A stretch of DNA of 64,000 nt from an uncultured Prevotella sp. (GCA_905202125.1 CAJKQX010000001.1:19273-83272), one strand, 5' to 3'; counted from the stretch's first letter, positions 9,872-61,327 are shown. Numbers and translations: made by a program. Notes: generated by a model not told the origin, from the letters alone.

Positions 9872-11335
9872 ATGTCAACAGAAAAAAGATACACTCTTGA
9901 TGGTAGTTTCAGAATCAAGAAAGCTATCATGTTCGCCATTGCTGTTATTGCAATGGCAATAATTTGGTTTATGCCTGTCGATTCTTTCGGAATCGAAGGG
10001 CTTACAGTCATTCAAAAACGCATCATTTCGATTTTTGCTTTTGCTACCATACTGTGGGTGACCGAAGCCATATCACCTTGGGCCACATCCGTCTCACTGA
10101 TCAGCATTCTCCTAATCACGACCTCAGACAATGCTCTCAACTTTTTGATTTCAGACATTGACAAAAGCGAATTGTTGAATCACAAAGCACTCATGGCCAC
10201 CTTTGCCGACCCGATCATCATCCTGTTCCTGGGAGGTTTTGTCCTGGCCATTGCCGCGACGAAATCGGGACTCGACGTTCTATTGGCACGCACTTTGCTC
10301 AAACCGTTCGGTACAAAGAGTGAGAATGTGCTTTTGGGATTCATTCTTATAACAGGCGTATTCTCCATGTTCGTCAGCAACACGGCCACAGCAGCCATGA
10401 TGCTCACATTCCTCACACCTGTGTTCAAGGCATTGCCGCCCGAAGGCAAAGGACGTGTCGCTCTGACACTGTCCATACCCGTGGCTGCCAATATAGGCGG
10501 TATGGGCACCATCATCGGTACACCTCCCAATGCCATCGCACTGAAATACCTCAACGATCCCAACGGTCTGAACATGGGTCTCGGTTTTGGAGACTGGATG
10601 ATGTTTATGACCCCGCTTGCGCTGATTTTATTGTTAATTGGCTGGTTCCTTCTGAAATACATGTTCCCATTCAAGAAAAAGACCATAAATATTGAAATAG
10701 AAGGCAATGTACAACACAACTGGCGCACAGTGGTTGTGGCCGCTACATTCGTGCTGACTGTTCTGCTATGGATTCTCGACCGTTGGACCGGTGTGGGAGC
10801 CAATACCGTAGCCATGATTCCTATTGCGATATTTGCATTCACAGGTGTAATCAAAGCTAGAGACCTTCAGGAAATCAACTGGAGCGTAATCTGGATGGTT
10901 GCCGGAGGTTTTGCCCTCGGTCTCGCCCTCAATGAGTCGGGACTGGCAGAGAACGTAATCAAGAGCATACCGTTCAACACATGGTCGGCAGTAGCCATAC
11001 TCATCACCTCGGGTATCATCTGCTACATTCTTTCCAATTTCATCTCAAACACTGCCACGGCGGCCTTGCTCGTACCTATCCTCGCTGTTGTCTGCAAGGG
11101 TATGGGAACGTCACTCGACAAGATTGGTGGCACACCTACCGTCCTCATCGGTATCGCTATTGCAGCATCAGTGGCCATGACATTGCCGATAAGCACACCG
11201 CCAAACGCCATCGCTCATTCCACAGGACTGGTGAAACAGAACGAAATGATGAAAATAGGTCTGACAATGGGTGTGATAGGACTTGTCTTAGGTTATGTGA
11301 TGTTGTTCGTTCTTGGCATAACTCACATCATTTAA
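9872..11335 (+). CDS. DASS/SLC13-family anion:sodium symporter (citrate/sulfate-transporter type)
   Basis: 487 aa polytopic protein with the duplicated SNTATAAMM / SNTATAALLVPI permease motifs typical of DASS (ArsB/NhaD superfamily). Confidence 0.75.
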   Translation: MSTEKRYTLDGSFRIKKAIMFAIAVIAMAIIWFMPVDSFGIEGLTVIQKRIISIFAFATILWVTEAISPWATSVSLISILLITTSDNALNFLISDIDKSELLNHKALMATFADPIIILFLGGFVLAIAATKSGLDVLLARTLLKPFGTKSENVLLGFILITGVFSMFVSNTATAAMMLTFLTPVFKALPPEGKGRVALTLSIPVAANIGGMGTIIGTPPNAIALKYLNDPNGLNMGLGFGDWMMFMTPLALILLLIGWFLLKYMFPFKKKTINIEIEGNVQHNWRTVVVAATFVLTVLLWILDRWTGVGANTVAMIPIAIFAFTGVIKARDLQEINWSVIWMVAGGFALGLALNESGLAENVIKSIPFNTWSAVAILITSGIICYILSNFISNTATAALLVPILAVVCKGMGTSLDKIGGTPTVLIGIAIAASVAMTLPISTPPNAIAHSTGLVKQNEMMKIGLTMGVIGLVLGYVMLFVLGITHII

Positions 11336-11377
11336 CCCAAAACAGCCATGAGCTCTGATAACCGATTTGGGTTTAAC
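11331..11377. repeat. MITE/REP-like palindromic element, minimal form (copy D)
   Basis: TTTAACCCAAAACAGCCATGAGCTCTGATAACCGATTTGGGTTTAAC. AACCCAAA / TTTGGGTT inverted ends. It overlaps the stop codon of the DASS gene and is homologous to the right half of the copy at 39415-39612. Confidence 0.7.
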
Positions 11378-11422
11378 ATGAACTCGAAATTAGTAAATTG
11401 TACAAATATTAATTCATACGAA

Positions 11423-11458
11423 GGGTCGCAAACTGGTGCGGCCCTTTATTTTTATTTT
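11423..11458 (+). terminator. rho-independent terminator downstream of the DASS transporter
   Basis: GGGTCGCAAACTGGTGCGGCCC stem-loop followed by TTTATTTTTATTTT. Confidence 0.7.
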
Positions 11459-11770
11459 ATATAAAGAGATATTCAGGAAAAAGGCGGTGTAAGGAGGATG
11501 TCGCTGAAATCCATTTTTGTCTATACTTTCAAAAAGAGAGCGATTGGAAACCAATACATTGCAAAATTGATTCTTGAGATTTTGGAGGTTCTGCAACACC
11601 CTCCCAACATTCGTGGAATTTTTTTGGAATATAATTAATTACCTAAAACGCGAAAAAATGCATAAACATGCAATTCCAAAAGTAAAAAATTTTGACAAAA
11701 CAAAATCGCAAAATAGAAAAACGGAGGCTCCAAAATAGGTGTTATCACCCCACTGTAACACGTCGAATTT

Positions 11771-11872
11771 CCCAAAGTGGCCCTTTCATCATGCGAAAGG
11801 AATCCTTTCAGAATGCGAAAAGGCTCCTTTTGGAACCAAAGTTGGGCACTTTTGGAAGTCATTTTTGGCCCA
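11771..11872 (-). repeat. triple-hairpin AAAGGGCC-type intergenic element (copy 1, reverse orientation)
   Basis: Its reverse complement aligns with 39076-39163 and 59230-59316. It consists of three consecutive short hairpins with A/T-rich stems and GC-rich loops, for example CGAAAGGAATCCTTTCAG and CAAAGTGGCCCTTTC. Confidence 0.65.
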
Positions 11873-12043
11873 ATTTTGCCTAAATTAGGAAGAATTTTTG
11901 TTAAAATATGTTTACAATCAAGTCATTAGGCGCGATATATTATTGACTATCAGACAGATGTGCAAACCCTCTCAAAACTCGCGTATTTACAAAAAAGAAA
12001 TTCTTCGTGCGAAATGATGCGATTCTCAGAGAGTTTAGGAGAA

Positions 12044-12091
12044 AATTAATGCATAAATATGCAAAACGAATTGCATATTTATGCATTAATT
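12044..12091. promoter_or_regulatory. perfect 21-bp-arm palindrome (candidate operator or structured 3' end)
   Basis: AATTAATGCATAAATATGCAA-AACGAA-TTGCATATTTATGCATTAATT. A single half-site, AATGCATAAACATGCAA, recurs at 11657-11673. It lies 25 nt 3' of the pantothenate-kinase-like gene. Confidence 0.5.
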
Positions 12092-12115: not shown

Positions 12116-12949
12116 TCAGTGAGACTTGTCGTTGATATAACACAGTGCTGCACCTATGGCCGTACAGAATTCGGAGTACTCGGGTATTCTGAATTTGACG
12201 CCGTAAAGTTTCTCGGTTGCAGGGAATACACGTTTGCATTGCGGCAAAAGCGTGAGATTGCCTATCATCACAAATTCCTTGATTCCACTTCCCAATGAAG
12301 ACAGAATAGATGCGCTGCAAATGGATTGTAACACCATCCATATCAGTCCGAGAGCTATGTCGTCTCGTGTGGCATCACTCTTGGCATTACCAAAAAGCGA
12401 AGCGATGGCGTCCATAGGCAATCCCGGCAACGGATTGGTACTGATGTCGCTTATCAACACATTGATGAGGGATATGTCGCCGTGTTCGGCCATAGATGCA
12501 ACCTGATTGATGTCATCCGTGTTGAGCAACAACCGGGAGAGGCCTTGCAGCGTTCCTCCTCCGATACCGATACCTCCGATATGGTCGATATGGTCGCCGT
12601 CGCACTTGACAATGGATGTACCCGTGCCCATGCTGACCACCATCATACGGTCGATGTTTGATTCATAACGAGCACCCAGACCGTTGGCGATAAACTCCTC
12701 CGCCTTGCCTGTGGGCAAGCCGTAAACAGGTGCATTGATGTAGGCACTACCAACACCGGTGAGCATAACCTTCTCTACGTTCTCCAAGTGTATCTTATTG
12801 TCATATAGATACTTGCCGAATGCTCCATAAAGTGAAGCTACGGGGTCGGTGGCACGGATTCTTATTGGCGAAAGAACCTTACCGTTTTCATTGATACCGA
12901 CAATCTTGGTCGTACTAATTCCAACATCTATTCCAATGACTATTCCCAT
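12116..12949 (-). CDS. type II (CoaW/Fumble-type) pantothenate kinase-like ASKHA ATPase
   Basis: 277 aa starting MGIVIGIDVGISTTK (ASKHA phosphate-1 motif), with GTGTSIV and GGIGIGGGTLQGLSRLL, then MAEHGD..NFG..GAAL. This collinear motif pattern matches staphylococcal CoaW-type PanK. Confidence 0.5.
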   Translation of the reverse strand: MGIVIGIDVGISTTKIVGINENGKVLSPIRIRATDPVASLYGAFGKYLYDNKIHLENVEKVMLTGVGSAYINAPVYGLPTGKAEEFIANGLGARYESNIDRMMVVSMGTGTSIVKCDGDHIDHIGGIGIGGGTLQGLSRLLLNTDDINQVASMAEHGDISLINVLISDISTNPLPGLPMDAIASLFGNAKSDATRDDIALGLIWMVLQSICSASILSSLGSGIKEFVMIGNLTLLPQCKRVFPATEKLYGVKFRIPEYSEFCTAIGAALCYINDKSH

Positions 12950-38893: not shown

Positions 38894-39075
38894 TAAAAAA
38901 TCACCGCATTTGTCAAAAAAAATTACCATTTTTCCCCTCCATGCTTGCGATATTTTCAATCGAGATATCTGACGGTCATTTTATCGCAAAAATAACGCGT
39001 TCTATTAACACGCTGATTATCAATATATTATAGCCGAATAGTTATCCGACAGCACCCCAAAACCATCAAAATCGG

Positions 39076-39163
39076 CTTTCAAAAGAGCCCAACTTGGCAT
39101 GCAAAAGGGCCCATTTCGGCCTCCGAAAGGGTTCTTTTCACCATGCAAAAGGGCCTCTTTTGG
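39076..39163 (+). repeat. triple-hairpin AAAGGGCC-type element (copy 2)
   Basis: CAAAAGAGCCCAACTTGG / GCAAAAGGGCCCATTTCGG / CCGAAAGGGTTCTTTTC / GCAAAAGGGCCTCTTTTGG. Aligns with 59230-59316 and with the reverse complement of 11771-11872. Confidence 0.7.
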
Positions 39164-39414: not shown

Positions 39415-39612
39415 TTAAACCCAATCGCATTAGACCGACAATGGGTATGAATGATGGTTATCGTATTGTCTGTTCACGTGTTTTGGGTTTCTATTTGTCG
39501 TCTTGCTTCCCGTCTTGTCTCGCCATAGCCCGCTATGCCTTCGACAATACGGTCGCAATACAACAAATATAATCTCCAAAACAGCCATGAACACTAATGA
39601 CCGATTTGGGCT
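39415..39612. repeat. MITE-like element, long composite form (copy C)
   Basis: Left half like copy B, conserved middle, right half like copy D (CCAAAACAGCCATGAACACTAATGACCGATTTGGGCT). Confidence 0.75.
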
Positions 39613-39642
39613 AAAAAAAAGGAGGTAATCGCCTCCTTTTTT
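39613..39642. terminator. bidirectional rho-independent terminator
   Basis: A8-GGAGG-TAATCG-CCTCC-T6. Serves the convergent DUF1846 gene. Confidence 0.75.
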
Positions 39643-39669: not shown

Positions 39670-41166
39670 TTATTTCTTCTTCACCGGGTCACAGGTGAGA
39701 CCGATTCCGAGTTTCTTGAAAATCTTCCGGTCTACCTCAGAGAGCATCACTGTGGAATGGACCTGACAGCCACACAACTTAGGCAGTTGCTCAAGAGCCT
39801 TACGGCAGTTGTCGTCAGCCTCGCTAAGTACGGACAGCGCTACAAGTACCTCATCGGTATGCAGACGTGGGTTGTTTCCTGCGAGATACTCCACCTTTGT
39901 CTTCTGTATCGGCTCTATCATCCTCTGCGGTATCAGTTTCACCTTGTGGTCGATACCTGCAAGATGCTTTGTGGCATTGAGGAGCAAGGCGGCACTCGGA
40001 CCGAGCAGCTCCGATGTCTGAGCTGTTATCATTGTACCGTCTGCAAGCTCGATGGCTGCGGAAGGAGTACCCGACTCGTCACGGCGGCGCTTTGCCTCGA
40101 GGGTAACCTTTCTTGTCGCAGTGCTTATCTTCGCCTGATTGAAGAGCATCTGTATCTTCTGCACCTCGCTCTCGTTGTCGGCTCCGTTGGCGAATTTGTT
40201 TGTAGCGTCGTAGTAGCGGCGGATAATCTCGTCCTTAGAAGCATCGCAACATACCTTGTCATCGCTGATGCAGAAGCCAACCATGTTGACTCCCATATCC
40301 GTAGGCGACTTATACGGATTGGTGCCGTAGATGCCTTCGAAGAGAGCGTTGAGAACCGGGAAAATCTCGATGTCACGGTTGTAGTTGATGGCTATCTCGC
40401 CGTATGCCTCAAGATGAAACGGGTCTATCATGTTCACATCGTTAAGGTCGGCTGTCGCTGCCTCGTAGGCTATGTTCACAGGATGTTTCAACGGGAGGTT
40501 CCACACAGGGAAAGTCTCGAACTTGGCATATCCTGCCTCGATGCCATGCTTATTCTCATTATAGAGCTGGGAAAGACAGACAGCCATCTTGCCGGAACCG
40601 GGACCGGGAGCGGTGACAATGACGAGCGAACGCTCTGTCTGTACATAGTCGTTCTTGCCAAATCCCTCGTCGCTGGCTATAAGCTCCACATTATGCGGAT
40701 AGCCGTCGATGAGATAATGCACGTATGACTTGATGCCCATACGGTTGAGCCTCTGTCGGAAAGCGTCGGCGGCATGCTGCCCGTTGTAATGGGTTATCAC
40801 GACAGAGCCTACAAAGAAACCGCGGCTGCCGAACTCGTCACGAAGCCTCAGCACATCCTCATCGTAAGTGATGCCGAGGTCGGCACGCACCTTGTTCTTC
40901 TCGATATCCTCAGCGCTGACAACGATGACAATCTCTATCTGGTCGCTGATTTTCTGAAACATACGCAACTTTGAGTCAGGCTGGAAGCCCGGCAGAACAC
41001 GGCTGGCATGATGGTCGTCAAACAGTTTGCCGCCAAGCTCAAGATACAGTTTGCCGCTGAACTGCGCTATACGCTTCTTGATATTCTCCGACTGAATACT
41101 AAGGTACTTATCGTTATCAAAACCAATCTTCATCCCTGTTGTTGTGTTCATAATATAAAAGTTCAC
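39670..41166 (-). CDS. DUF1846 / UPF0371-family protein
   Basis: 498 aa. I call it by length and overall resemblance to UPF0371 proteins of Firmicutes and Bacteroidetes. Function unknown. Confidence 0.5.
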   Translation of the reverse strand: MNFYIMNTTTGMKIGFDNDKYLSIQSENIKKRIAQFSGKLYLELGGKLFDDHHASRVLPGFQPDSKLRMFQKISDQIEIVIVVSAEDIEKNKVRADLGITYDEDVLRLRDEFGSRGFFVGSVVITHYNGQHAADAFRQRLNRMGIKSYVHYLIDGYPHNVELIASDEGFGKNDYVQTERSLVIVTAPGPGSGKMAVCLSQLYNENKHGIEAGYAKFETFPVWNLPLKHPVNIAYEAATADLNDVNMIDPFHLEAYGEIAINYNRDIEIFPVLNALFEGIYGTNPYKSPTDMGVNMVGFCISDDKVCCDASKDEIIRRYYDATNKFANGADNESEVQKIQMLFNQAKISTATRKVTLEAKRRRDESGTPSAAIELADGTMITAQTSELLGPSAALLLNATKHLAGIDHKVKLIPQRMIEPIQKTKVEYLAGNNPRLHTDEVLVALSVLSEADDNCRKALEQLPKLCGCQVHSTVMLSEVDRKIFKKLGIGLTCDPVKKK

Positions 41167-50855: not shown

Positions 50856-50883
50856 CCAAGAGATAGTTGCGTATTCTTAATTA
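50856..50883. repeat. 28-bp element, inverted partner of 59037-59064, with shared promoter-like flank
   Basis: GAGATAGTTGCGTATTCTTAATTATCTC is the exact reverse complement of 59037-59064. A shared AAATGTTAATTTTG (TAnnTTTG-like) motif lies 15 nt upstream of each copy. Confidence 0.8.
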
Positions 50884-51113
50884 TCTCACAGTATTCGGGT
50901 GCCAAAATTAACATTTCGCTCCAAATTTCATAAATGTCAAAAATGAAATCGTCCAATCGGATGTAGGGCTGAAGGCCCGAAAAGCGCTCAGCCCGGGGCA
51001 AAGCGAAACGAAGTGGAGCGACGCACCGGGCTTGAATGAATTGAGAAGATTGCGCGTTGAAGGCGCAAAAGCGTTAATAACAACATGTCACAGTCATTGA
51101 GCAAAATCTATGT

Positions 51114-51734
51114 TCATCCCAATTTCTTCTTTATAAACATCTTGATTATCTCCGCCGTGTCCTCCATTCCCAAGCGGCTCGAGTTGATGCAGAGGTCGTA
51201 CGACGCGGAGTGTCCCCATTTCTTGCCGGTGTAATAATTGTAATAGTTGGCGCGCTCGTTTTCTCTCGTTGTGATGATTCTGATGGCCGTTTCCTTGTCG
51301 CATCCGCGCTCGTCGGCTATTCTGGCGGCGCGCTCGTCGATATCGGCGGAGATGAAGATGCTCACCATGCGCGGGTTGTCACGCAGCACGTAGTCGGCAC
51401 ATCTGCCCACAAAGACGCACGAGCGCTCCTCGGCAGCCTTGCGTATGGCGTCGCTCTGAAACTGGAACAGACTCTCTTGCGAAAGTTTGTTATTATAGAA
51501 ACTTGAACTTGAGAGAAAGGGCATGTGGGTGTACACCGTGGATTTGAAGAATCCTTTCTGCTCATCGTTCTCTTTGAAAAAAGACTCGCAGAATCCACTC
51601 TCCTTAGCCGCGAGATTAAGGAGTTCCTTGTCATACAGCTTGCATCCGAACGCTTCGGCCAGTATCGCCGCGATGACATGGCCTCCGCAACCCAATTGTC
51701 TGCCCACGCTGATTATAATGTTATTGTTGTCCAT
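51114..51734 (-). CDS. cytidylate-kinase-like family P-loop protein
   Basis: The ORF is open to 52067, but the conserved N-terminus MDNNNIIISVGRQLGCGGHVIA (P-loop) starts at 51734. The upstream extension overlaps the MATE gene and I treat it as non-coding. Confidence 0.55.
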   Translation of the reverse strand: MDNNNIIISVGRQLGCGGHVIAAILAEAFGCKLYDKELLNLAAKESGFCESFFKENDEQKGFFKSTVYTHMPFLSSSSFYNNKLSQESLFQFQSDAIRKAAEERSCVFVGRCADYVLRDNPRMVSIFISADIDERAARIADERGCDKETAIRIITTRENERANYYNYYTGKKWGHSASYDLCINSSRLGMEDTAEIIKMFIKKKLG

Positions 51735-51745
51735 TGGTGATTTCT

Positions 51746-53097
51746 CTATGTTGTTTTTTTGAATTTTTTCATATATACAGCCATTATCCACGCTGCGACG
51801 ATGGCTGCAATGGCATCGGATGCCGGCATGGCTCCCCACACGCCGTCCACTCCGAAGAAGTGGGGCAGAATGGCGAGCAACGGCAAGAGAAACAGCAGTT
51901 GGCGCGACAGCGAGAGGAAAATGCTTATCTTCGCTTTGCCGATACTCTGAAAGAAATTGGTGATGACCATCTGATAGCCTACCAGAGGGAATGTCACCAT
52001 GATGATCCTTATGCCTTTTACCGACAGCGAGATGAGTGTTTCGTCTGTGGTGAAGAGCCGTGCACATACGTCAGGGATAGCCATTGCGATGACGAATCCC
52101 GTGGTCATGATGGCTGTGGCGGCTATCATCGCCAGTTTGAGTACGCGCATCAGGCGGTCGAAATGTTGTGCACCGTAATTATAGCCCGCTATGGGCTGCA
52201 TGCCCTGATTGACTCCCATGTTTATCATCACGAAAATGAATGCCACCCTGTTGGCTATGCCGAAAGCACCCACGGCGAGGTCGCCGCTGTACTCCACGAG
52301 ACTGTTGTTGATGAAGATCACGATGATGCAGGCGCACACGTTCATCGAGAAGGGTGACAGGCCGATGGAAATAATGTTCCTCACGATGTTGTCATCCAAT
52401 CGGTATATGCCCCGTTTGAGATGCAGCGGTTCGCGCTTGTCGCTCATGATACGCAGTTGCCACACGAGTGCCAATGTCTGCGACAGTATGGTGGCGTAGG
52501 CTGCTCCGCGTATGCCGAGGTCAAGCCCCCAGATGAAAAGGGGGTCGAGTACGGAGTTCATCACCACCGTAAAGATGGTCATATACATGGCGTTGCGCGG
52601 TTTGCCCACCGCCCTGAGTATGGCGTTCATGCCAAAGAACATGTGGGTTATCACGTTGCCCGTTAGTATTATGACCATATAGTCGCGGGCGTAAGGGATG
52701 GTCTGGTCGCTCGCACCGAAAAATCTGAGTATCTCATCGAGAAACATCAGAGGAATGAATCCCACGCACAGACCGATGATGATGTTCAGGGTCATACAGT
52801 TGCCCAGGATGTGTTGTGCCGTTTTATAGTCTTTCTGACCCAGTTTGACCGACAGATATGTGGATGCGCCCACACCTATCGCTGCGCCGAATGCAGCCGT
52901 GAGGTTCATGAACGGGAACGTGATGGCCAGGCCGGATATGGCCATCGGGCCTACTCCTTGTCCTATAAATATGCTATCCACCATGTTGTAGAGCGATGCC
53001 GCGGTCATGGCGATGATGGCCGGTATGGCGTATTGCATGAGCAGACGGCCTACCGGTTTGGTTCCTAATTCGAGTGTTGCTTGTCTGTTATCCATAA
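51746..53097 (-). CDS. MATE-family efflux transporter
   Basis: 12 TM segments. Start chosen at MDNRQATLELGTKPVGRLLMQYAIPAI; the ORF is open to 53173. Confidence 0.85.
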
Positions 53098-53207
53098 TGT
53101 TCTGATTCGTTGCAAAGTTACTCCAAATAGTAAACATGGCAAAGCGACGGCTGTCCTTTTTTTTGTATCCCATCGCCTTGACATGACAGGACGGTCAGCC
53201 TCGGCCA

Positions 53208-54182
53208 TTATGCCAGCCTTATTATATAATAACCTACAAACACAACCAACAGGGCGGTGCCTTCCCAGCGCTGTATGGTGTACTTGGTGAACGAGAAAAG
53301 CCACAGCAGTATCATCGACAACACCATCACCGAGAAATCCGTCATCCAGATGCCCTCCATCTGCATGGGGCAGATGGCGCCCGTGGCGCCGAGCACGAGG
53401 AGTATGTTGAACACATTAGACCCCAACACATTGCCTATGGCTATGCCGCTGTTGCCCTTGTGGGCGGCCACCACGCTTGTGGCAAGTTCGGGTAGCGATG
53501 TGCCCATAGCCACTATGGTGAGACCGATCACGGCCTCGCTCACTCCGAAAGAGCCGGCCACGTAGGTCGCTCCCTCCACAAAGATGTTGCTGCCCACGAT
53601 GAGACACACCAGTCCGAGGGGTATCAGTATCAGCGGCGACTGAGGATGGAACAGGGCATGGAGCTTGCTTTTGGGTTTCTCGATTGCGGCTTGTGTTGTC
53701 TCGGTCTGAACGGCGCCGACAGTTGTCGGGGCCTCTTGCTTGGCTCCGGTGAGAGTGATATACATGAACGCCGCAAACATCACGAGCAGCACCGCCGCAT
53801 CCACGCGCGACAGATTGCCGTCGTAGCACAGCATCATCAGCAGGGCCGAGGCCATCATGGCAAACGGTATGTCTTTTCTCACCGCGGTGTGGAGTATGGT
53901 TATCGGTGCCACCATGGCAGCGGCACCAACAATGACGAGCGTATTGAATATGTTGCTGCCCACGATGTTGCCCACTGCAAGGTCGGACGTACCCTTTACG
54001 GCCGACACCAAGCTCACGCAAAACTCCGGCATCGACGTGCCTATGGCAACTATCGTCAGCCCTATCACTATCTGCGGTACCTTCAACCGTTCGGCCACCG
54101 TCACGGCTCCTTCGGTCAGTCGGTCGGCTCCCCACAACACCAAAACTATTCCTGCAATGATAAACGAAATATTCAAAAACAT
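53208..54182 (-). CDS. Ca2+/Na+ antiporter (CaCA / YrbG family)
   Basis: 324 aa. Two alpha-repeat regions with GNIVGSNIFN and GNVLGSNVFN motifs. Confidence 0.8.
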   Translation of the reverse strand: MFLNISFIIAGIVLVLWGADRLTEGAVTVAERLKVPQIVIGLTIVAIGTSMPEFCVSLVSAVKGTSDLAVGNIVGSNIFNTLVIVGAAAMVAPITILHTAVRKDIPFAMMASALLMMLCYDGNLSRVDAAVLLVMFAAFMYITLTGAKQEAPTTVGAVQTETTQAAIEKPKSKLHALFHPQSPLILIPLGLVCLIVGSNIFVEGATYVAGSFGVSEAVIGLTIVAMGTSLPELATSVVAAHKGNSGIAIGNVLGSNVFNILLVLGATGAICPMQMEGIWMTDFSVMVLSMILLWLFSFTKYTIQRWEGTALLVVFVGYYIIRLA

Positions 54183-54343
54183 ACCTTATTATATTATATA
54201 TAAATGAAAAATTTTACTGCGAAAATATTGTTTTCTATCCGCCGCATACCATTGCGGCAAACTTTGGAAATGTAAAAGTACAAAATATTCATCACAATTC
54301 TGTGTGCGCTAATCATTATTTTTCTTACTTTTGCACAAACAAT

Positions 54344-55651
54344 ATGCCGAAGATGCAAAAATCCCTGACACTTTACGAACTCAACAATCTCGTTGCGGAG
54401 GTTGTCCGCACCACCATGCCCGATGAGTATTGGGTGGAGGCCGAGATATCCGAGCTGCGTGAGGTGCGCGGTCATTGCTACATGGAACTGGTGCAGAAGG
54501 ACCTCATGGGCGTCACGCCTGTGGCGCGGGCCTCGGCCAAGTGCTGGCGCACCACGTGGCTGAAGGTGCGCGACGAGTTTGAACGCGTGACGCGTAGCAC
54601 GTTGCATCGCGGCATGAAGGTGATGCTGTGCGTGTATGCAGATTTTCACGAGGCATACGGTTTTTCATGGATAGTGACCGATATCAATCCCGAATACACG
54701 ATGGGCGACATGGCCCGCCGACGTCAGGAAACCATCAACAGACTGAAGGCTGAGGGCGTTTTTAATTTGCAACGCGAACTCACACTGCCCCTCTTTGCCC
54801 AGCGCGTGGCCGTGGTGTCGAGCGAGAAAGCGGCCGGCTATGGTGATTTCTGTCGTCATCTGGCGGACAATAGTTATGGGTTCGCTTTCGATGTGCATCT
54901 TTTTCAGGCCGCCATGCAAGGCGAGTCGGTAGGTCCGGCGATAATCGCGGCCCTCGAGCATATCTATTGCAGCATGGACGACTACGATGTGGTGGTGATA
55001 ATAAGGGGTGGAGGCGCCACGAGCGATCTGTCGGGATTTGACTCGTTCGAGTTGGCAGAGAATGTTGCCAATTTTCCTCTTCCGGTGGTTACGGGGGTGG
55101 GACATGACCGTGACGAGACGGTGCTCGACCTCGTGTCGGCTGTCAGTGTGAAGACGCCGACGGCCGCCGCCGCTTATCTTATCGACCGTCTGGCTGCGGT
55201 GTCGGCCCGTATCGATGACGCCGCGGAGTGCGTATCGAGGTGTGCTCAGCGCCGTATGGAGTATGAGCGTATGCGTCTGGGGCGTCTGGCTGATGTGCTG
55301 CCCGGTCTGTTCTCGCTCACGAAGAGCCGCGAGACGGCGCGTCTCGACCGTCTCCATGACACCATTGCTTCCGCCTCCGCGCAACGCATTGTCTCAGCCC
55401 GACATTCCACCGACACGATGGCGGAGCGCATACACACCGCGGCCCGCAGTATGATGGCGGAGCAAAACCATCGTGTCGATCTTCTCAGCCATCGCATCAA
55501 GGCGGCCGACCCGTACTTGCTGCTCAAACGCGGATACAGTATCACGCTGCACAACGGCCGCGCCGTGTATGACGCATCGCAGCTTGGCGATGGTGACACA
55601 TTAGAGACCATAGTGAACAAGGGTAGGGTGAAATCGGTGGTAAGGAAATGA
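54344..55651 (+). CDS. xseA: exodeoxyribonuclease VII large subunit
   Basis: OB-fold N-terminus (LTLYELNNLVAEVV), catalytic core, coiled C-terminal region. The ORF is open from the GTG at 54302; ATG at 54344 preferred. Confidence 0.85.
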   Translation: MPKMQKSLTLYELNNLVAEVVRTTMPDEYWVEAEISELREVRGHCYMELVQKDLMGVTPVARASAKCWRTTWLKVRDEFERVTRSTLHRGMKVMLCVYADFHEAYGFSWIVTDINPEYTMGDMARRRQETINRLKAEGVFNLQRELTLPLFAQRVAVVSSEKAAGYGDFCRHLADNSYGFAFDVHLFQAAMQGESVGPAIIAALEHIYCSMDDYDVVVIIRGGGATSDLSGFDSFELAENVANFPLPVVTGVGHDRDETVLDLVSAVSVKTPTAAAAYLIDRLAAVSARIDDAAECVSRCAQRRMEYERMRLGRLADVLPGLFSLTKSRETARLDRLHDTIASASAQRIVSARHSTDTMAERIHTAARSMMAEQNHRVDLLSHRIKAADPYLLLKRGYSITLHNGRAVYDASQLGDGDTLETIVNKGRVKSVVRK

Positions 55652-55672
55652 TTTTACACATTATATTATATT

Positions 55673-55867
55673 ATGGCAAAAGAAAACATCAGATACGAAG
55701 AGGCTGTGAGCCGACTGGAGGAGATAGCCGACAAGATGGAGAGTGGAAAGATGGATATCGACACTCTGTGTGCCGAGCTTAAAACGGCACAGAAACTGAT
55801 AAAGATGTGCAGGGACAAACTGACCCGCACCGACGTGGAAATCAAGAAGATACTTGACGATAAATGA
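55673..55867 (+). CDS. xseB: exodeoxyribonuclease VII small subunit
   Basis: 64 aa. YEEAVSRLEEIADKMESG motif. Immediately follows xseA. Confidence 0.85.
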   Translation: MAKENIRYEEAVSRLEEIADKMESGKMDIDTLCAELKTAQKLIKMCRDKLTRTDVEIKKILDDK

Positions 55868-56134
55868 ACGGCACATATTGGCCCGTGGCGGCCCGGCGAT
55901 AATGACTATTTGTATGTGATTGGCATGCAAATAGTGTTAATATGTTGATATGTATCATTTATTTAAATAATTTTTGAAAATAAAGGGGATTTGTTTGTAA
56001 CTATGCTTAATTTGTTTTAAATTTGCAATTACTAAACTTATCGCTCTGCCGACGATATGAAAATGATGACTCGTCGTAGTATCATTTTTTGAGCTTATTT
56101 TTTTGATAAAAAGTAGTTCTTAATAACATTTTTA

Positions 56135-56142
56135 CCCCCCCC
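56135..56142. repeat. C8 homopolymeric tract
   Basis: TTTACCCCCCCCATTTTTTGGG, about 80 bp upstream of the small acidic ORF and about 320 bp upstream of the 806-aa T9SS protein. Confidence 0.9.
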
Positions 56143-56218
56143 ATTTTTTGGGAGTGGTGATTATAAGGGGAGGGTGAGGTAAAATGGAATTTATTATTAA
56201 CTTATTAGGGGAGTAAAT

Positions 56219-56392
56219 ATGAAAAAAGAAGCTTATGCAAAACCGTGCATAGATGTAGTCATCATGCACGTAGAGAATTTTATGATGCTTTCGACGTATG
56301 ATAATGGCGGTGGCACAAAGATTCTTATCCAACACCAAAATCCTACCGACGACGGTATTTATGACGATGAATATGGTGATTACGATGATTAA
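56219..56392 (+). CDS. small hypothetical ORF with acidic Tyr/Asp-rich tail
   Basis: 57 aa, MKKEAYAKPCIDVVIMHVENFMMLSTYDNGGGTKILIQHQNPTDDGIYDDEYGDYDD. Below the track cutoff. Preceded by GGGGAG. Upstream of the T9SS protein. Confidence 0.15.
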   Translation: MKKEAYAKPCIDVVIMHVENFMMLSTYDNGGGTKILIQHQNPTDDGIYDDEYGDYDD

Positions 56393-56464
56393 AGAGAATT
56401 AAAGTCTAAATTCACAACATTCAAAAACAATTTTTTTTCTAACTATACATTATCTTATCTTATT

Positions 56465-58885
56465 ATGAAATCAAAGATATTTTATATAATGGCTTTGTGC
56501 CTTTTCGCGTTTATGCAGACTGTAAACGCACAGAAATTGGATGAGGTTGTTTGGTTCAATTATTCAAAACCGGTAGAGCAATTAGTTACAAAAGAAGGGA
56601 AAGAACCTATCCGTGTATTGATTTTCAACCGAAGTGCGGCTATTGGCAACGACGCAGGCACACGTCCGGGTTTGGGGCGTACAAAAGCATTCTTGACTAA
56701 TGGCGGCGGCTATGGAATGCAAGGTGTTCTGTCGGATTTCGGAACTCGCTTCTATATCACAAGATCGAAAGATTATGATTCGGACAAGGATGTTTACAAT
56801 ATCCATTCTTACCTTACCAATAAGGTGGTGGTAGGCTTGGGCAACTGCTTGTCTTATTCATGGAGCATCTATATGGACAGAGGTGATAGGAAATCAGACG
56901 GCGGTGACAGATCTTACCCTAATTGGTATTTTGAAAAAACAAATACTGAAAATTCGGGAAATACTGATAATTGCGGATATTATTTGAAGAATATGGAAAC
57001 ATTTGACGACATGAAGCAACCATATCTTTATTATAAAAACCACACAACAAGTACCGGAAATGATATTAACACAGTCCAAGTAACTGCCGACGGGTCTTTG
57101 AAAGACGAGTGGTGTTTCATCACCGAGGAAGATTACCGTAAGGCCATGACCGGTTTCTCAAGCAATTTCTATATCGAGGCCTCAGGCTTGATTCACGATG
57201 CGAGTTTCAACAGATTCAATGATTATCAGACTGAATGGAAACCATCTCTCGCCGAGGACGGATATACAGTTTTCCCGATGAAAGAACCATTGGGTGATGG
57301 CCAAACATTGCCGGAAGGTAAAGCTCCGATAGATTATTACGGTTACGAGATTCCTGCAACTACTTATAATCTTCCTTTGAACGAGACTTATCTCAATGCT
57401 CATATCGAAGATGACACTTATGAAGCGATGAAGAATCTTCTGACATACAAGACTCACGTGATGGGTGCATCACAGATGGACCGAGATGTTACAGTAGCCG
57501 TCGAAGCGTCCACCAGTGACGATATGACATTGCCGGGTGATAGTTATTTATTTATGGAAAAATATGGCAAGGACTATTGTGCCGGTATTTATGCCGACGG
57601 TAAATATGAGCAGACTATCAAAGGTGTGCCCGCTGGTACTTATCGCATTACGTGTACGGCAGTAAACACGGGTACAAACGAGTTTAACGGTTCGCTGTTG
57701 GTCAATGGACACAAGGTGAATCTGCCGTTGCTGGCCGAAAAGGACAGTGAATTCCAGAAAATAAAGAAAGAGGTGATAGACGATGCGAAAGCTCGTCGTG
57801 CTCTGCACATCGATGATTATTATTATCAGGGCCTTGATGTATTGGCCGCATCCCGACTGCTTGAGAAAAACAAGGAGAGATTCACCGTAAACTATTACAT
57901 CACAGTGGAAGAAGGTGAAGATATCACCATCGGATTCTCCAATAACAACAAGGATGACAAGGATGCCCTCAACCATCCTGTATTCGCCGACAATTTTCGA
58001 ATGTATCTCATGCAAATGGATTTCCAGGCCTACATCTCTGCCAACAATGTCACTGCTGCGAACTTGGACAAGTTCGACTACAAGCAACCTGTGGATCTCT
58101 ATGTACGCCGCGCATTCACTGAAGGCTGGAATCCCATCGTGTTGCCGTATGACATCACTCTCGGCGGTGCACAATCCGGTATCGGAGAAGGTGTCAATCT
58201 GAGCAAACTCATCGGTATCAATCCTGATGATCCGAAAGAGGTCCTCTTTGAATTTACCAATCAGCTTAAGGCCGGCGAGTGCGGACTGATCTACATCCCC
58301 AAGAAGACTGATACAACACCATCTTCTGAAAAGGCCCTGAAAATTCTGAATGCACCGTTTAACTTGGGTGCTAATGAGGCGGCACATACTGTCGATAAGA
58401 CCATCCACGGTCCTTACTACTGCATCAACGGTGCATTGAGATCGGGCGATGAGAATGGATATTATTATACAGAAGACGCTGATACCGAGGTGGACAAAAC
58501 TTACGAGACAGGTGATAACAATGAATACAAACTCCATTTCCACGGATATTATTACAAACCCGAAAACACAGCATGGCCGGCCGGTTCGTATGTCATGGAA
58601 AATGGCACAATGTATCAGCTCCAAAGCGATTGGGGCAGGGTGTATGGCACAATGTGGTATCTGACCGAACCGGAAAGCGCACTGCAATCGGCCCCCAAAG
58701 TGTTCAACATCAACGGTGTGGTGGACGGAGACGTGACCTCTATCAGTGGTGTCGGCGTGGAAAGCGAGACATATAGTAACAAGGTGTACAATCTCAACGG
58801 ACAGTATGTGGGTACAGCAGCCGACATCGACCGTCTGCCAAAGGGAATGTATATCACCAACGGCAAGAAGATGGTCGTGAAATAA
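56465..58885 (+). CDS. large secreted hypothetical protein with T9SS C-terminal sorting domain
   Basis: 806 aa. Signal peptide. C-terminal ~80 aa (KVYNLNGQYVG...LPKGMYITNGKKMVVK) matches the Por secretion sorting domain. No catalytic motifs recognised. Confidence 0.6.
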   Translation: MKSKIFYIMALCLFAFMQTVNAQKLDEVVWFNYSKPVEQLVTKEGKEPIRVLIFNRSAAIGNDAGTRPGLGRTKAFLTNGGGYGMQGVLSDFGTRFYITRSKDYDSDKDVYNIHSYLTNKVVVGLGNCLSYSWSIYMDRGDRKSDGGDRSYPNWYFEKTNTENSGNTDNCGYYLKNMETFDDMKQPYLYYKNHTTSTGNDINTVQVTADGSLKDEWCFITEEDYRKAMTGFSSNFYIEASGLIHDASFNRFNDYQTEWKPSLAEDGYTVFPMKEPLGDGQTLPEGKAPIDYYGYEIPATTYNLPLNETYLNAHIEDDTYEAMKNLLTYKTHVMGASQMDRDVTVAVEASTSDDMTLPGDSYLFMEKYGKDYCAGIYADGKYEQTIKGVPAGTYRITCTAVNTGTNEFNGSLLVNGHKVNLPLLAEKDSEFQKIKKEVIDDAKARRALHIDDYYYQGLDVLAASRLLEKNKERFTVNYYITVEEGEDITIGFSNNNKDDKDALNHPVFADNFRMYLMQMDFQAYISANNVTAANLDKFDYKQPVDLYVRRAFTEGWNPIVLPYDITLGGAQSGIGEGVNLSKLIGINPDDPKEVLFEFTNQLKAGECGLIYIPKKTDTTPSSEKALKILNAPFNLGANEAAHTVDKTIHGPYYCINGALRSGDENGYYYTEDADTEVDKTYETGDNNEYKLHFHGYYYKPENTAWPAGSYVMENGTMYQLQSDWGRVYGTMWYLTEPESALQSAPKVFNINGVVDGDVTSISGVGVESETYSNKVYNLNGQYVGTAADIDRLPKGMYITNGKKMVVK

Positions 58886-59036
58886 CACATTATCATACTA
58901 TCGGTCGGATGACCTACAAAAAACTACGACGGTGTGGCAAGAAGCAATTGCCACACCGTCGTTGCTTTGTAGGTGTAAACATTATTTTGTATTGGAAAAA
59001 TGTTAATTTTGTGTCCCGCTTACGTCGAGATAATTA

Positions 59037-59064
59037 AGAATACGCAACTATCTCAGGAGATAAC
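59037..59064. repeat. 28-bp element, inverted partner of 50856-50883
   Basis: GAGATAATTAAGAATACGCAACTATCTC, preceded by AAAATGTTAATTTTG-N15. Confidence 0.8.
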
Positions 59065-59229
59065 TGTTAAAATTGCGTCCCATTTTTGCGATATTTCCGA
59101 GAGAGGTGATTGCTCGGCCGAAATACGCCAAATTTCGCCGCTTTGCGTAAATCGGTGTGTATCAATCTGATATGCGATACGCACATTTCCAGGGACATCA
59201 AAAGACATTCAAAAATCACGAAAATGTCC

Positions 59230-59316
59230 CCAAAAAGAGCCCGACTTGGGTTCCGAAAGGGCCTCTTTCGCCTCCCGAAAGGGTTCCTTTCGCACTATAA
59301 AAGGGCCTCTTTCACA
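59230..59316 (+). repeat. triple-hairpin AAAGGGCC-type element (copy 3)
   Basis: CAAAAAGAGCCCGACTTGGG / CCGAAAGGGCCTCTTTCG / CCGAAAGGGTTCCTTTCG / AAAAGGGCCTCTTTC. Confidence 0.7.
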
Positions 59317-59518
59317 AATCAAGTGTATAAAAATCGGGAAATCGGATGGTTTTTCACGTTCCGGAATACGATTTTTCCCATTTCCCGGCTTCGTATCTTT
59401 CTAAAATGAAAGTAAATCCTGCAAAAACGAAATGTTAAAAATTTGGATTTGCATGCGCGACATTTAGGCATCAAAAGTAGGGTCTCACCTGTTGCGGCCC
59501 TACACCGAAGTACATTGA

Positions 59519-59562
59519 TTAACCCAAATCGTCATTAGAGTTCATGACCGATTTGGGTTAAA
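59519..59562. repeat. MITE/REP-like palindromic element, minimal form (copy E)
   Basis: TTAACCCAAATCG-TCATTAGAGTTCATGAC-CGATTTGGGTTAAA. Perfect 11-bp inverted arms. Confidence 0.75.
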
Positions 59563-59653
59563 TTTGGATATTTTGACAAAAATAGTTGCAACACACTGTT
59601 TTTATTATTACTTTTGTCAGTAATTACAATATTTGGATATTAATTTGTAAATT

Positions 59654-60676
59654 ATGAAGGATATAGATTGGGCTGGGCTGTCGTTCGGCTATATGCCCAC
59701 AGATTACAACGTGCGTTGTAACTATCGCAACGGTAAATGGGGCGAAATAGAAGTATGCTCCGATGAGTATTTGAAACTGCACATGGCAGCCACTTGTCTG
59801 CATTACGGACAGGAAGCTTTTGAGGGATTGAAGGCTTATCGTTGTCCCGACGGCAAAGTGAGAGTATTTCGTATGAAGGATAACGCAGAACGACTGCAGG
59901 GTACATGCCGCGGCATCATGATGCCCGAGTTGCCCACAGAGCTGTTTTGCGAGATGGTGGAAAAAGTGGTGCGTCTCAATCAGGAATACATCCCGACATA
60001 CGAGAGCGGTGCCACACTCTACATCCGCCCATTGCTTATCGGTACGAGCGCACAAGTGGGTGTGCATCCCGCAGATGAGTATATGTTCCTTATCTTCGTG
60101 ACACCCGTGGGACCGTATTTCAAAGGCGGTTTTTCAACAAATCCATACGTCATCATTCGCGATTACGACCGTTCGGCACCGCTCGGCACAGGTATGTTCA
60201 AGGTGGGCGGCAACTATGCCGCATCGCTCAAGGCCAACAGTATAGCACATGAGAAGGGATATGCCTGCGAGTTTTATCTCGACGCCAAAGAAAAGAAATA
60301 TATGGATGAGTGTGGGGCCGCCAATTTCTTCGGAATAAAGGACAATACATACATCACCCCGAAATCAACGTCGATACTACCGAGTATCACCAACCGCAGT
60401 CTCATGCAGCTGGCCGAGGACTACGGCATGAAGGTGGAGCGTCGACAGATACCCGAGGAAGAGCTCGAGACATTCGAGGAGGCCGGTGCTTGCGGTACGG
60501 CTGCCGTAATCAGTCCGATATCCTACATCGACGATCTGGACACAGGCAAACGCTATACATTCAGCGCCGACGGCAAACCCGGACCGATATCCAAGAAACT
60601 GTACGACCATCTGCGCGCCATACAATATGGAGTGGAGGAAGACAAGCACGGATGGACAACGGTGGTGATAGGCTGA
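59654..60676 (+). CDS. ilvE: branched-chain-amino-acid aminotransferase
   Basis: 340 aa. Fold-type IV PLP enzyme with EAFEGLKAY, GTGMFKVGGNYAASL and EAGACGTAAV motifs. Confidence 0.88.
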   Translation: MKDIDWAGLSFGYMPTDYNVRCNYRNGKWGEIEVCSDEYLKLHMAATCLHYGQEAFEGLKAYRCPDGKVRVFRMKDNAERLQGTCRGIMMPELPTELFCEMVEKVVRLNQEYIPTYESGATLYIRPLLIGTSAQVGVHPADEYMFLIFVTPVGPYFKGGFSTNPYVIIRDYDRSAPLGTGMFKVGGNYAASLKANSIAHEKGYACEFYLDAKEKKYMDECGAANFFGIKDNTYITPKSTSILPSITNRSLMQLAEDYGMKVERRQIPEEELETFEEAGACGTAAVISPISYIDDLDTGKRYTFSADGKPGPISKKLYDHLRAIQYGVEEDKHGWTTVVIG

Positions 60677-60744
60677 AAAAGCTATTCCATATAAATCAGA
60701 GACAATCGGAAAACATTTATTAACACACAAAAAACAGATCAATT

Positions 60745-61263
60745 ATGTTGAACAAGAAAGTAGAAGAGGCTCTTAATGCCCAAATCAATGCGGAAATGTG
60801 GTCGGCTTATCTATATCTGTCGATGGCCGCATTCTGCCATTCACAAGGTAATTCCGGATTGGGAAAATGGTTTGAAGTACAGTTCCAGGAGGAGCAGGAC
60901 CATGCGAAGATATTATACAATTATATCATCTCACGTGGCGGCAATGTGACCCTGACTGCGATAGAAAGTGTTCCGACAACATGGAACTCGATACTCGAGG
61001 TGTTCGAGTCTACACTTGAGCACGAGCAGAAAGTGACATCACTCATCAATAATCTGTTTGCCCTGACAACAGCCGAGAATGACTATGCCACACAGAGCAT
61101 GCTCAAATGGTTTATCGACGAGCAGGTGGAGGAAGAGGAGACCGCCCAGACCATCATCGACAACCTGAAGATGATCAAGGACAACGGATACGGTCTGTAT
61201 ATGCTCGACAAAGAACTCGGAGCACGTACATACACACAGGCATCGCCGCTGGCAGGCAAGTAA
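60745..61263 (+). CDS. ftnA: non-heme ferritin
   Basis: 172 aa. Ferroxidase-centre residues in EMWSAYLYLSMAA ... QEEQDHA ... LEHEQ. Confidence 0.88.
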   Translation: MLNKKVEEALNAQINAEMWSAYLYLSMAAFCHSQGNSGLGKWFEVQFQEEQDHAKILYNYIISRGGNVTLTAIESVPTTWNSILEVFESTLEHEQKVTSLINNLFALTTAENDYATQSMLKWFIDEQVEEEETAQTIIDNLKMIKDNGYGLYMLDKELGARTYTQASPLAGK

Positions 61264-61288
61264 TGTAATAAGTGCACCTTATTATATA

Positions 61289-61327
61289 TTAAACCCAAAT
61301 GGGGCTAATGACCGATTTGGGTTAAAC
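61289..61327. repeat. MITE/REP-like palindromic element, minimal form (copy F)
   Basis: TTAAACCCAAATGGGGCTAATGACCGATTTGGGTTAAAC, 26 nt after the ferritin stop. Confidence 0.7.

Follow-up and report, generated by a model that had tools for sequence, protein, structure and literature searches.

A MITE family with the ends of an IS1380-family element

The six palindromic elements of the window (the whole stretch of DNA analysed, 64,000 nucleotides from an uncultured Prevotella sp.) are very probably worn members of a MITE family that has the ends of an IS1380-family IS. As shown below, the MITE ends are identical to those of the IS. The original prediction of a non-autonomous element is borne out by the presence of terminal inverted repeats (TIRs), target site duplications (TSDs), a small, gene-less size and an autonomous partner. 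It also correctly located all six intergenic copies in the 64-kb window (hereinafter c1 to c6), with the ends CCCAAATCG...CGATTTGGG. The repetitive character of these copies is confirmed by the motif AACCCAAATCG, which, with at most 1 mismatch, has 11 matches in the window compared to 1.99 expected, a number that is reached in 0 of 100 shuffles.

The consensus TIR is 17 bp long (CCCAAATCGGTCATTAG...CTAATGACCGATTTGGG; 80 end pairs collected), and helix 1 of the family alignment, which represents the terminal repeats, is almost invariant. The 80 end pairs come in discrete sizes, namely 42–50, 70, 166–167, 184–188 and 194–199 nt, plus three of 1434–1471 nt; the elements that they bound measure ~40, 66, 166, 187 and 197 nt and, in three cases, 1.43–1.47 kb. 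The gene-less members range from 28 to 278 nt and contain no transposase gene. The family is found in gut, oral and rumen Bacteroidales. The 19-mer AACCCAAATCGGTCATTAG is present as an exact match in at least 120 genome loci from many genera of this order, the carriers including Prevotella, Hallella, Leyella, Alloprevotella, Bacteroides, Phocaeicola, Parabacteroides, Muribaculaceae, Paludibacteraceae and others. A looser pattern, AACCCAAATCGN{0,2}CATTAG, identifies 30 IMG/VR contigs, of which ~22 have the exact end and the remainder are likely chance matches. A search of Rfam 15 yields no match at the gathering score anywhere in the window, and scans by E-value, covering the MITE regions of the window and one typical MITE (L120), detect chance-level matches only. 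In agreement with the original remark that the element was not recognised as a described Bacteroidales repeat, the end sequence is absent from the literature searched and no published description of the family was found. MITEs as such are an ordinary kind of mobile DNA.

Anatomy and gene surroundings of the window copies

Here, the element limits are drawn from CCC to GGG, and the flanks outside these limits are counted as target DNA. Two copies on the plus strand, c2 (37275–37462, 188 nt) and c4 (39420–39610, 191 nt), represent the ~190-nt class in its full length, with 95% identity to each other across 140 nt. An nhmmer search with a profile made from elements of other genomes only detects both copies over the full length, c2 with E=1.3e-25 (model positions 1–191) and c4 with E=1.8e-26. 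The left end of c2 has lost 2 nt and carries one substitution, and its right end has a 4-nt deletion; in c4, the right end is intact (17/17 consensus positions) and the left end contains three 1-nt deletions. A perfect 5-bp duplication, TTTAA, flanks c2 (37270–37274 and 37463–37467), and the flanks of c4, TTAAA (39415–39419) and CTAAA (39611–39615), are mismatched. The only ORFs that gene callers place over c2 and c4 are spurious ones of 75 aa. The long forms had been interpreted as composites of three modules, but each of them is one member of a pan-Bacteroidales ~190-nt element.

The copy c3 (38823–38892, 70 nt, plus strand) is a sub-element located between 6-bp direct repeats, CTAAAA (38817–38822 and 38893–38898). 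It is the counterpart of the ~190-nt MITE's left third (nhmmer model positions 1–65, E=1.1e-4), is 90% identical to the respective part of c2, and is terminated by an internal end-like motif, GTGTTTTGGG.

The copies c1, c5 and c6, to which no strand is assigned, consist of little more than two ends and are recovered by the profile as end fragments. In c1 (11336–11371, 36 nt), which is flanked by a perfect 5-bp duplication, TTTAA (11331–11335 and 11372–11376), the right end agrees with the consensus in 15 of 17 positions and the left end is formed by the end-like motif CCCAAAAC. The end matches of c1 to the family profile are weak (E=0.03–0.04), and this copy shares homology with c5 as well as with the right arm of c4. 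The copy c5 (59523–59557, 35 nt, within the region 59518–59562) is made up of a left end minus 1 nt, a 9-nt spacer and the outer portion of a right end. Over its first 25 nt it agrees completely with the right arm of c4 in the form present in contigs L245, L247 and L248, and its flanks, ATTAA and TTAAA, have only the 4 bp TTAA in common. In c6 (61294–61321, 28 nt; nhmmer E=4.8e-5), with a perfect 5-bp duplication, TTAAA (61289–61293 and 61322–61326), the right end is intact (17/17) and the left end is cut off after CCCAAAT. The profile search of the window reveals no copies beyond these six. The modularity that had been noticed in the window copies is real, and is better explained by sub-elements that have internal end-like motifs (CCCAAAAC / GTTTTGGG) as their limits and by recombination between copies.

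The details of the gene context were also described correctly for c1, c2 and c6. The stop codon TAA (11333–11335) of the DASS/CitMHS transporter gene (9872–11335) is located within the left duplicate of c1. The copy c2 lies between the converging genes for an MFS protein (35572–37185) and a 368-aa protein (37511–38617, minus strand), and adjoins a terminator hairpin downstream of the MFS gene; the terminator of the DUF1846 gene (39670–41133, minus strand) comes after c4. The copy c5 precedes the branched-chain aminotransferase gene (59654–60676) by 96 nt, and c6 is found 26 nt past the ferritin gene (60745–61263), just ahead of a bidirectional terminator hairpin.

Target site duplication and insertion polymorphism

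The ‘TTAA’ that adjoins CCC...GGG on the outer side represents a TSD of 5 bp at TTWAA. Accordingly, the originally proposed ends (AACCC...GGGTT, or TTAA) are not those of the element: only CCC...GGG belongs to it, and TT-W-AA outside is duplicated target. The 5-mers outside CCC...GGG are identical in 46 of the 75 pairs, compared to a mean of 13.8 and a maximum of 25 in 2000 shuffled controls, and the identical pairs include the atypical ATGAA, ATTAT, TTGAA, TTCAA and GTAAA. The flank profile is T-T-W-A-A and becomes random past 5 nt, the left-flank statistics being partly biased because the search pattern had AA before CCC.

Searches for empty sites, successful in one of five cases, identified a filled/empty pair: contig L031 carries a 150-nt MITE with duplicated ATAAA, and L240 is empty, with a difference of 155 bp and 100% identical flanks. 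With respect to insertion polymorphism, which had been suggested as a check, the family thus provides this one pair, but none was seen for the six window copies among the conspecific contigs. All such contigs that reach a window copy have it (some reach c4 only partly), and c6 is unchanged in L001 and L002. The view of the window copies as active or recently active thus finds no support: the conspecific contigs carry them, none of the six has two intact ends, and the 64-kb window encodes no transposase of the IS1380 partner family. Given the last two observations, they resemble relics more than active elements.

Among the conspecific contigs, which diverge on either side of c4, this copy marks a junction that stems from structural variation or else from assembly breaks. 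It might have joined recombination between copies at a later stage or, alternatively, might confuse assemblers.

The autonomous partner

The three long elements with the family ends, 1430–1467 bp in size, are located in contigs L133, L071 and L118. In L133, from Hallella bergensis DSM 17361, the element (2594–4060, 1467 bp) encodes a DDE transposase of the IS1380 family that is intact, reaches 239.9 bits with the NCBIfam IS1380 model NF033539 (cut-off 180) and also matches Pfam DDE_Tnp_1_4 (PF13701) with 143.7 bits. The L071 copy is 98% identical to the L133 element and has an intact transposase as well, and the L118 copy is frameshifted. The parent IS has CCC...GGG ends, with the duplications TTAAA (L133) and ATAAA (L071). 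IS200/IS605 TnpA/TnpB had been proposed as the partner; instead, the MITE ends are common to the IS that encodes the IS1380-family DDE transposase. The 66-nt class is shown to be a deletion derivative of an IS1380-family element: these MITEs consist of IS nucleotides 1–51, at 100% identity, and the opposite end. The ~190-nt class has only the 17-bp ends in common with the IS copies found. Relatives of the transposase group into 3664 protein clusters at E<=1e-40, and many of these are on ~1.5-kb contigs. Elements of the IS1380 family generally have ends that start with CC and a direct repeat of 4–5 bp; IS942 and IS1186 of Bacteroides also belong to this family. Relaxed end recognition has been described for the IS1380 family (ISEcp1, ISPme1) (PMC9330008), and IS1380-family insertions are active in gut Bacteroidia (PMC10592638).

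Under the most plausible scenario, the DDE transposase produced from a full-length IS elsewhere in the cell would bind both ends of a MITE, cut at the CCC/GGG boundaries and insert the element at TTWAA with a 5-bp stagger, so that TTWAA would be duplicated on both sides; the MITEs would be mobilized in trans by the IS transposase. The short forms might have originated by internal deletion or through acceptance of internal end-like motifs by the transposase. The placement at gene 3' ends probably reflects the A/T-rich target, found in the surroundings of stop codons and terminators, together with the loss of harmful insertions.

Alternative explanations and the fold of the ~190-nt form

The short copies are hairpins, c4 and c2 are readable as unit, spacer and inverted unit, and all copies are extragenic, many of them close to 3' ends, as would be the case for REP/BIME/REPIN-like hairpins spread on ssDNA by a RAYT/IS200-IS605-type Y1 transposase, with the long forms being inverted pairs of ~35-nt units. 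However, REPs are not known to generate target duplications, and their recognition is via a hairpin with a 5' GTAG-type guide, not via terminal repeats, whereas the present family has 5-bp target duplications, a precise filled/empty pair and true TIRs that are common to a DDE-transposase IS, and no Y1 transposase is found among the 20 window proteins scanned. The REP/BIME label of the original prediction is contradicted by the target duplications and by the DDE transposase as the partner, and we consider this origin highly improbable. There is equally little to be said for the ~190-bp segments being invertons that are flipped by a site-specific recombinase and switch the neighbour genes. The size of ~190 bp and the 17-bp inverted repeats may resemble those of Bacteroidales invertons, but the target duplications, the filled/empty pair and the cognate transposase account for the repeats. 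Furthermore, the 28–70-nt forms cannot serve as invertible promoters, the conspecific contigs show c2, c3 and c4 in an unchanged orientation, and no recombinase is encoded nearby (20 window proteins scanned).

The predicted fold of c4 is rod-like and has a single side branch (-60.2 kcal/mol, z -5.3). Contrary to the description of the short forms as perfect hairpins, the hairpin of c5 has one bulge (-9.8 kcal/mol, z -5.6), c6 forms a short hairpin (z -4.2), and in c1 the pairing extends over just 6 bp (z -1.2). Across 46 elements from many genera, and with shuffles that ignore phylogeny, the central stem-loop has 86% of the cells paired vs 62% in shuffled data and 31–43% with slid partners, a covariation score of 0.616 vs 0.211 and double changes in 15 of 16 pairs; the respective values for pairing in the whole rod are 68.5%, 59% and 36–44%. 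Covariation in the interior of the ~190-nt form is not predicted by a purely selfish DDE-transposon model.

It appears doubtful, albeit compatible with the MITE origin, to which it would add, that the ~190-nt form, spread by transposition, is kept for a working rod hairpin. Such a hairpin could function as RNA (3'-UTR stabiliser, RNase target or terminator helper), as a DNA cruciform or as a protein-binding site. The strong covariation, the z of the c4 fold and the presence of 16 of 48 elements in convergent spacers, which make up 57 of the 365 spacers by count, i.e., a two-fold excess, argue for host use. Against it, there is no orientation bias with respect to the neighbour genes (11 vs 12 at 3' ends, 11 vs 16 at 5' ends), and by a hand tally of the pair table G-U cells (~41) are about as common as the A-C cells of the opposite strand (~37), so no single RNA strand is favoured. 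The Rfam scans of the window MITE regions and L120 gave chance-level hits only, arm-to-arm repair of the palindrome could also keep the pairing, and c2, c4 and c6 are unneeded for termination because ordinary terminator hairpins adjoin them.

A broader proposal, in our assessment rather unlikely to hold as a whole, combines selection of the ~190-nt rod itself, as a transposase substrate or in host use, with a model clade that follows the piggyBac rule and with a smallest unit of 28–38 nt. The rod, with its conserved tip CrTAG-CCCG-CTAyG, may be under selection across Bacteroidales families, and the ~190-nt class would then not be just a passive deletion derivative; an IS1380-type (piggyBac-related) transposase could need a folded or cruciform substrate to join the ends; and mobility may require no more than a 28–38-nt pair of ends. 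If true, a clade with CCC...GGG ends and a TTAA-like target could model the origin of piggyBac target choice.

Comparison with known systems

The partner resembles the IS1380 family (ISEcp1, ISPme1) in that it passes the NCBIfam cut-off, contains one ORF, has ends beginning with CC and duplicates 5 bp (sometimes 4) at A/T-rich targets; the known use of end-like sequences by this family (PMC9330008) fits the sub-elements c1 and c3. The differences are that the window contains gene-less derivatives only and that the parent IS, with 1467 bp, is among the smaller members of the family. IS1380-derived MITE families are not mentioned in a 2024 review of prokaryotic MITEs (PMC10969869).

The eukaryotic piggyBac and its MITEs also have 5'-CCC...GGG-3' ends and a TTAA-like target (TTAA in piggyBac, TTWAA here), but the piggyBac duplication is 4 bp, compared to the usual 5 bp here. 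In piggyBac trees, IS1380 transposases provide the outgroup from prokaryotes (PMC10813416). A search of PDB with the IS1380 transposase, both as a single sequence and as a profile, detects no match to solved structures, piggyBac included, and the AlphaFold model of the transposase (pLDDT 46) is too low in confidence for a fold search; the resemblance in ends and target can be taken as a tentative lead.

REP/BIME/REPIN elements with RAYT are similar in being extragenic palindromes, often near 3' ends and sometimes in inverted pairs, but the present family has target duplications and the terminal repeats of a DDE-type IS, with no RAYT involved. Correia/NEMIS of Neisseria, ERIC of enterobacteria and BrickBuilt/MITE239 of Porphyromonas gingivalis are likewise short, non-coding, intergenic, multi-copy elements with TIRs, target duplications and long hairpins, often located beside genes. 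Compared to these, the family described here has other ends, another target (TTWAA, 5 bp) and another parent family, its minimal forms are 28–38 nt long, and it spans many genera and families of Bacteroidales, as well as IMG/VR contigs, with an invariant 17-bp end.

Repeat copies in the window

The six palindromic copies of the original prediction are confirmed in place (c1, 11336-11371; c2, 37275-37462; c3, 38823-38892; c4, 39420-39610; c5, 59523-59557; c6, 61294-61321). The end motif AACCCAAATCG, with at most one mismatch, has 11 matches in the window against 1.99 expected, a number reached in 0 of 100 shuffles. A repeat finder aligns c2 with c4 (95% identity across 140 nt) and c3 with the left part of c2 (90% identity), and likewise recovers the right ends common to the copies. 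An ORF map combined with Pfam scans bears out the intergenic position of all copies: c1 lies 3' of a DASS/CitMHS transporter gene, c2 between two convergent genes, one for an MFS protein and one for a 368-aa product, c3 and c4 both within the 1-kb spacer ahead of a DUF1846 gene (called start, ATG at 41133), c5 96 nt 5' of a branched-chain aminotransferase gene, and c6 26 nt 3' of the ferritin gene. The 5-bp target duplications of c1, c2 and c6 are perfect, and the predicted overlap of c1 with the transporter stop codon is real, because the left duplicate supplies the TAA.

A family profile built from 59 elements, all of other genomes, matches c4 (E=1.8e-26) and c2 (E=1.3e-25) over its full length, c3 over model positions 1-65 only, and c1, c5 and c6 as end fragments, with no further match in the window. 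The family possesses internal end-like motifs, CCCAAAAC and GTTTTGGG; c1 starts with CCCAAAAC and c3 terminates at an internal GTGTTTTGGG, both of which resemble the true end. Given that enzymes of the IS1380 family accept end-like sequences (PMC9330008), we infer that c1 and c3 would be sub-elements moved from alternative ends; possibly, they were shaped by deletion in place instead. None of the six copies has two intact ends, no transposase of an IS1380-type partner is encoded in the window, and c1, c2, c3, c5 and c6 are unchanged in those retrieved conspecific contigs that reach them. The window copies look old. Family ends are absent from 463 kb of other Prevotellaceae loci, so that the genome of the window is comparatively rich in them. 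The window derives from an uncultured member of Prevotellaceae; matches to its proteins come only from MAGs and metagenome contigs (DNA identity, 99.3-100%), and the best named relatives of the aminotransferase next to c5 come from Xylanibacter and Prevotella.

Target duplication and the parental insertion sequence

Of 75 pairs, 46 have identical 5-mers on the two sides of CCC...GGG, compared to a mean of 13.8 and a maximum of 25 when the right flanks are shuffled among elements (2000 shuffles); no comparable excess is seen at lengths 3, 4, 6 and 7. The flank profile reads T, T, A-or-T, A, A (two of the left-flank positions being biased by the search pattern) and is random past position five. 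Several identical pairs are atypical (ATGAA, ATTAT, TTGAA, TTCAA, GTAAA, ATAAA), which marks the flanking 5-mers as duplications that lie outside the inverted repeat; the TTAA originally assigned to the element ends is, in fact, duplicated target DNA. An empty site is provided by locus L240, which matches the IMG/VR contig L031 perfectly on both flanks and is devoid of the 150-nt element and one ATAAA copy; four of five IMG/VR empty-site searches were without result. For the window copies, a metagenome scan with the 368-aa neighbor of c2 yielded only relatives of at most 57% identity, with loci free of any family ends, and in the syntenic relative L238, the element after ferritin is absent but the spacer is unalignable. 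The terminal inverted repeats, the 5-bp duplication and the empty site define a MITE family that an IS1380-family transposase would mobilize. The ends of IS1380-family elements, as classified in ISfinder, start with CC and are bordered by a 4-5-bp repeat, features that fit those found here.

A search for AACCCAAATCGGTCATTAG in which every species was represented by a single genome identifies at least 120 loci, nearly all in Bacteroidales; the matches listed include Prevotella, Hallella, Leyella, Alloprevotella, Bacteroides, Phocaeicola, Parabacteroides, Muribaculaceae, Sodaliphilus and Paludibacteraceae. When each end is matched to the inverted end that follows it, 80 elements of discrete sizes result (42-50, 70, 166-167, 184-188 and 194-199 nt, the last class being the commonest), three of them spanning 1434-1471 nt. 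The long element of Hallella bergensis DSM 17361 (L133; 1467 bp, NZ_GG704780.1, about 658594-660060) contains a single ORF, whose score against the NCBIfam IS1380 model is 239.9 bits (cut-off, 180) and which also matches Pfam DDE_Tnp_1_4; locus L071 carries an IS copy 98% identical to it, and L118 a copy with a frameshift. The 66-nt elements consist of IS nucleotides 1-51 (100% identity) joined to the opposite end and are, therefore, direct deletion derivatives of the IS.

In IMG/VR, 30 contigs match a looser pattern and about 22 contain the exact end. Both MITEs and full-IS ends occur on viral-classed contigs (L009, L010, L014, L017, L023-L025, L012, L015, L020, L031), and one insertion is common to seven related contigs of one data set. 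This presence suggests a route of spread, with phages or prophages as carriers of the family between hosts; the IS has no DNA match among the GenBank phage or PLSDB plasmid collections. Outside Bacteroidales, complete MITEs of ~185 nt are found on a 3.2-kb contig of an Oscillibacter MAG (L058) and at the end of a 75-kb contig of a Wujia chipingensis bin (L100), and one end alone in a Chloroherpetonaceae MAG (L065). Binning contamination is the likely source of the two complete MITEs, with real transfer as a possible alternative, and the single end in L065 could be a chance match, given that a collection of this size would yield ~4 random 19-mer matches.

Junctions at c4

The conspecific contig L241 (junction region 1380-1760) is 99.87% identical to the window until the last ~35 nt of c4 and then continues into other genes; its copy of c4 has a perfect TTAAA/TTAAA duplication, whereas the window has TTAAA/CTAAA. 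From the DUF1846 side, two other contigs, L245 (junction region 3690-4444) and L246, follow the window through c4 and diverge at the opposite end of the copy, beyond which they contain a region with 80% similarity to window 59015-59499, in which the MITE occupies the position of c5. The interior of c4 is also the contig end of L242, L247 and L248. Among contigs with 99.3-99.9% identity elsewhere, c4 has three different junction partners. These junctions reflect either recombination between MITE copies or assembly chimeras joined at the repeat, and the window's own join at c4, with its mismatched flanks, could be one of these products.

Internal structure

The predicted fold of c4 (-60.2 kcal/mol, z -5.3) is a rod bearing a single side branch. 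In the RNAalifold prediction for 46 members of the ~190-nt class, a central stem-loop ends in the tip CrTAG-CCCG-CTAyG, and compensatory changes occur at 15 of 16 pairs. In this stem-loop, 86% of the cells are paired, compared to 62% in shuffled alignments and 31-43% with slid partners, and the covariation score is 0.616, against 0.211 and 0.064-0.145, respectively. The whole rod, taken from c4, has 68.5% of the cells paired (59% shuffled; 36-44% slid partners). The conservation of the internal structure is unexpectedly strong. The elements show no preferred orientation with respect to the neighboring genes (11 vs 12; 11 vs 16), a hand tally of the pair table gives similar numbers of G-U cells and of A-C cells, their equivalents on the opposite strand (41 vs 37), and the Rfam search proposed in the original prediction matched no family, at either the gathering score or E-value thresholds. 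These results argue against a strand-specific RNA role, so that the constraint seems to act on the palindrome itself. Convergent spacers harbor 16 of 48 elements, a twofold excess over the 57 of 365 expected by count, a pattern that the loss of insertions close to promoters would produce.

A reading in which the long forms are pairs of a ~35-nt unit "U" in inverted arrangement, in the manner of BIME or REPIN, was dropped on account of the order-wide ~190-nt family and the target duplications. Integron attC sites, considered because of the GTTRRRY-like ends, were dismissed, the genes being dispersed housekeeping ones rather than cassettes. A tRNA-derived origin, mentioned in the original prediction, was rejected, as the window has no tRNA genes.

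Other repeats in the window

A second repeat family of ~100 nt (11767-11865, minus strand; 39059-39160 and 59211-59319, plus strand; with a related region at L245 3968-4433) consists of ~22-nt units, each a small GAAAGG...CCTTTC hairpin (AAAAGAGCCCAACTTGG..CCGAAAGGGTTCCTTTCGC..AAAAGGGCCTCTTT). All three window copies lie 200-450 nt from a MITE copy, on a constant relative side. A strict two-unit motif, which also missed the 59-kb window copy, has 0 matches in ~245 fetched loci, and Rfam gives no match for this family. A ~560-nt paralogue of the 59-kb spacer in a conspecific contig contains a full MITE exactly at the c5 site.

A 57-nt inverted repeat (50860-50916 and 58998-59054; 86% complementary), containing a small GAGATA...TATCTC hairpin, brackets an 8-kb block (about 50917-58997) that belongs to a region of altered gene order and orientation compared to related species (L233, L238); contig L245 terminates in a 98% copy of the arm at 50860. 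Four 21-nt units (TTGTTCTGTTCGGAAATCTTG; 61549-61653) are repeated in tandem within the ORF 61431-62444 (minus strand). An alignment of the conspecific locus L001 to the window contains 21 gap positions across 6.2 kb, which may correspond to one unit of this array. Just 3' of a Fumble-domain gene (12116-12949, minus strand), there is a perfect palindrome pair of 21 nt, AATTAATGCATAAATATGCAA / TTGCATATTTATGCATTAATT, 6 nt apart (12044-12091), with a related half-site about 390 nt off (11652-11676); the pair looks like a hairpin or a putative protein-binding site.

Implications and comparison with known systems

The family affects annotation, where it is called as 75-aa "hypothetical proteins", and metagenome assemblies, which are broken at its copies; masking it would improve Bacteroidales MAGs. 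Public 75-aa gene calls across MITEs (e.g., ...NPNRIRPTMGMNDGYRIVCSHVLGFYLSSC...) include L241 1546-1773 and 3672-3899 and L242 2122-2349 (corresponding to window c4 and c2). These ORFs are almost certainly spurious and will seed hypothetical-protein clusters. The family is also a marker of insertion and recombination sites in abundant gut, oral and rumen bacteria, with cultured carriers such as Hallella bergensis DSM 17361, Prevotella pectinovora P4-76, Phocaeicola coprophilus and Prevotella falsenii.

Neither the end sequence nor any description of IS1380-derived MITEs of Bacteroidales was found in the literature, ISfinder and Dfam being outside this comparison. A MITE family with an IS parent is a well-known kind of element, and no major concept is altered; what is gained is a MITE family with many members for IS1380, a family that has been little studied. 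The nearest comparisons are the IS1380 family itself, bacterial MITEs (Correia, ERIC and the Porphyromonas elements) and piggyBac. As a test of the piggyBac link, the IS transposase was searched against PDB, with no sequence match, and its AlphaFold model (pLDDT 46) was left unused. The likeness to piggyBac consists of the CCC...GGG ends and the TTAA-like target, and IS1380 serves as the outgroup in piggyBac trees (PMC10813416); by this analogy, a link between the two would be a lead only.
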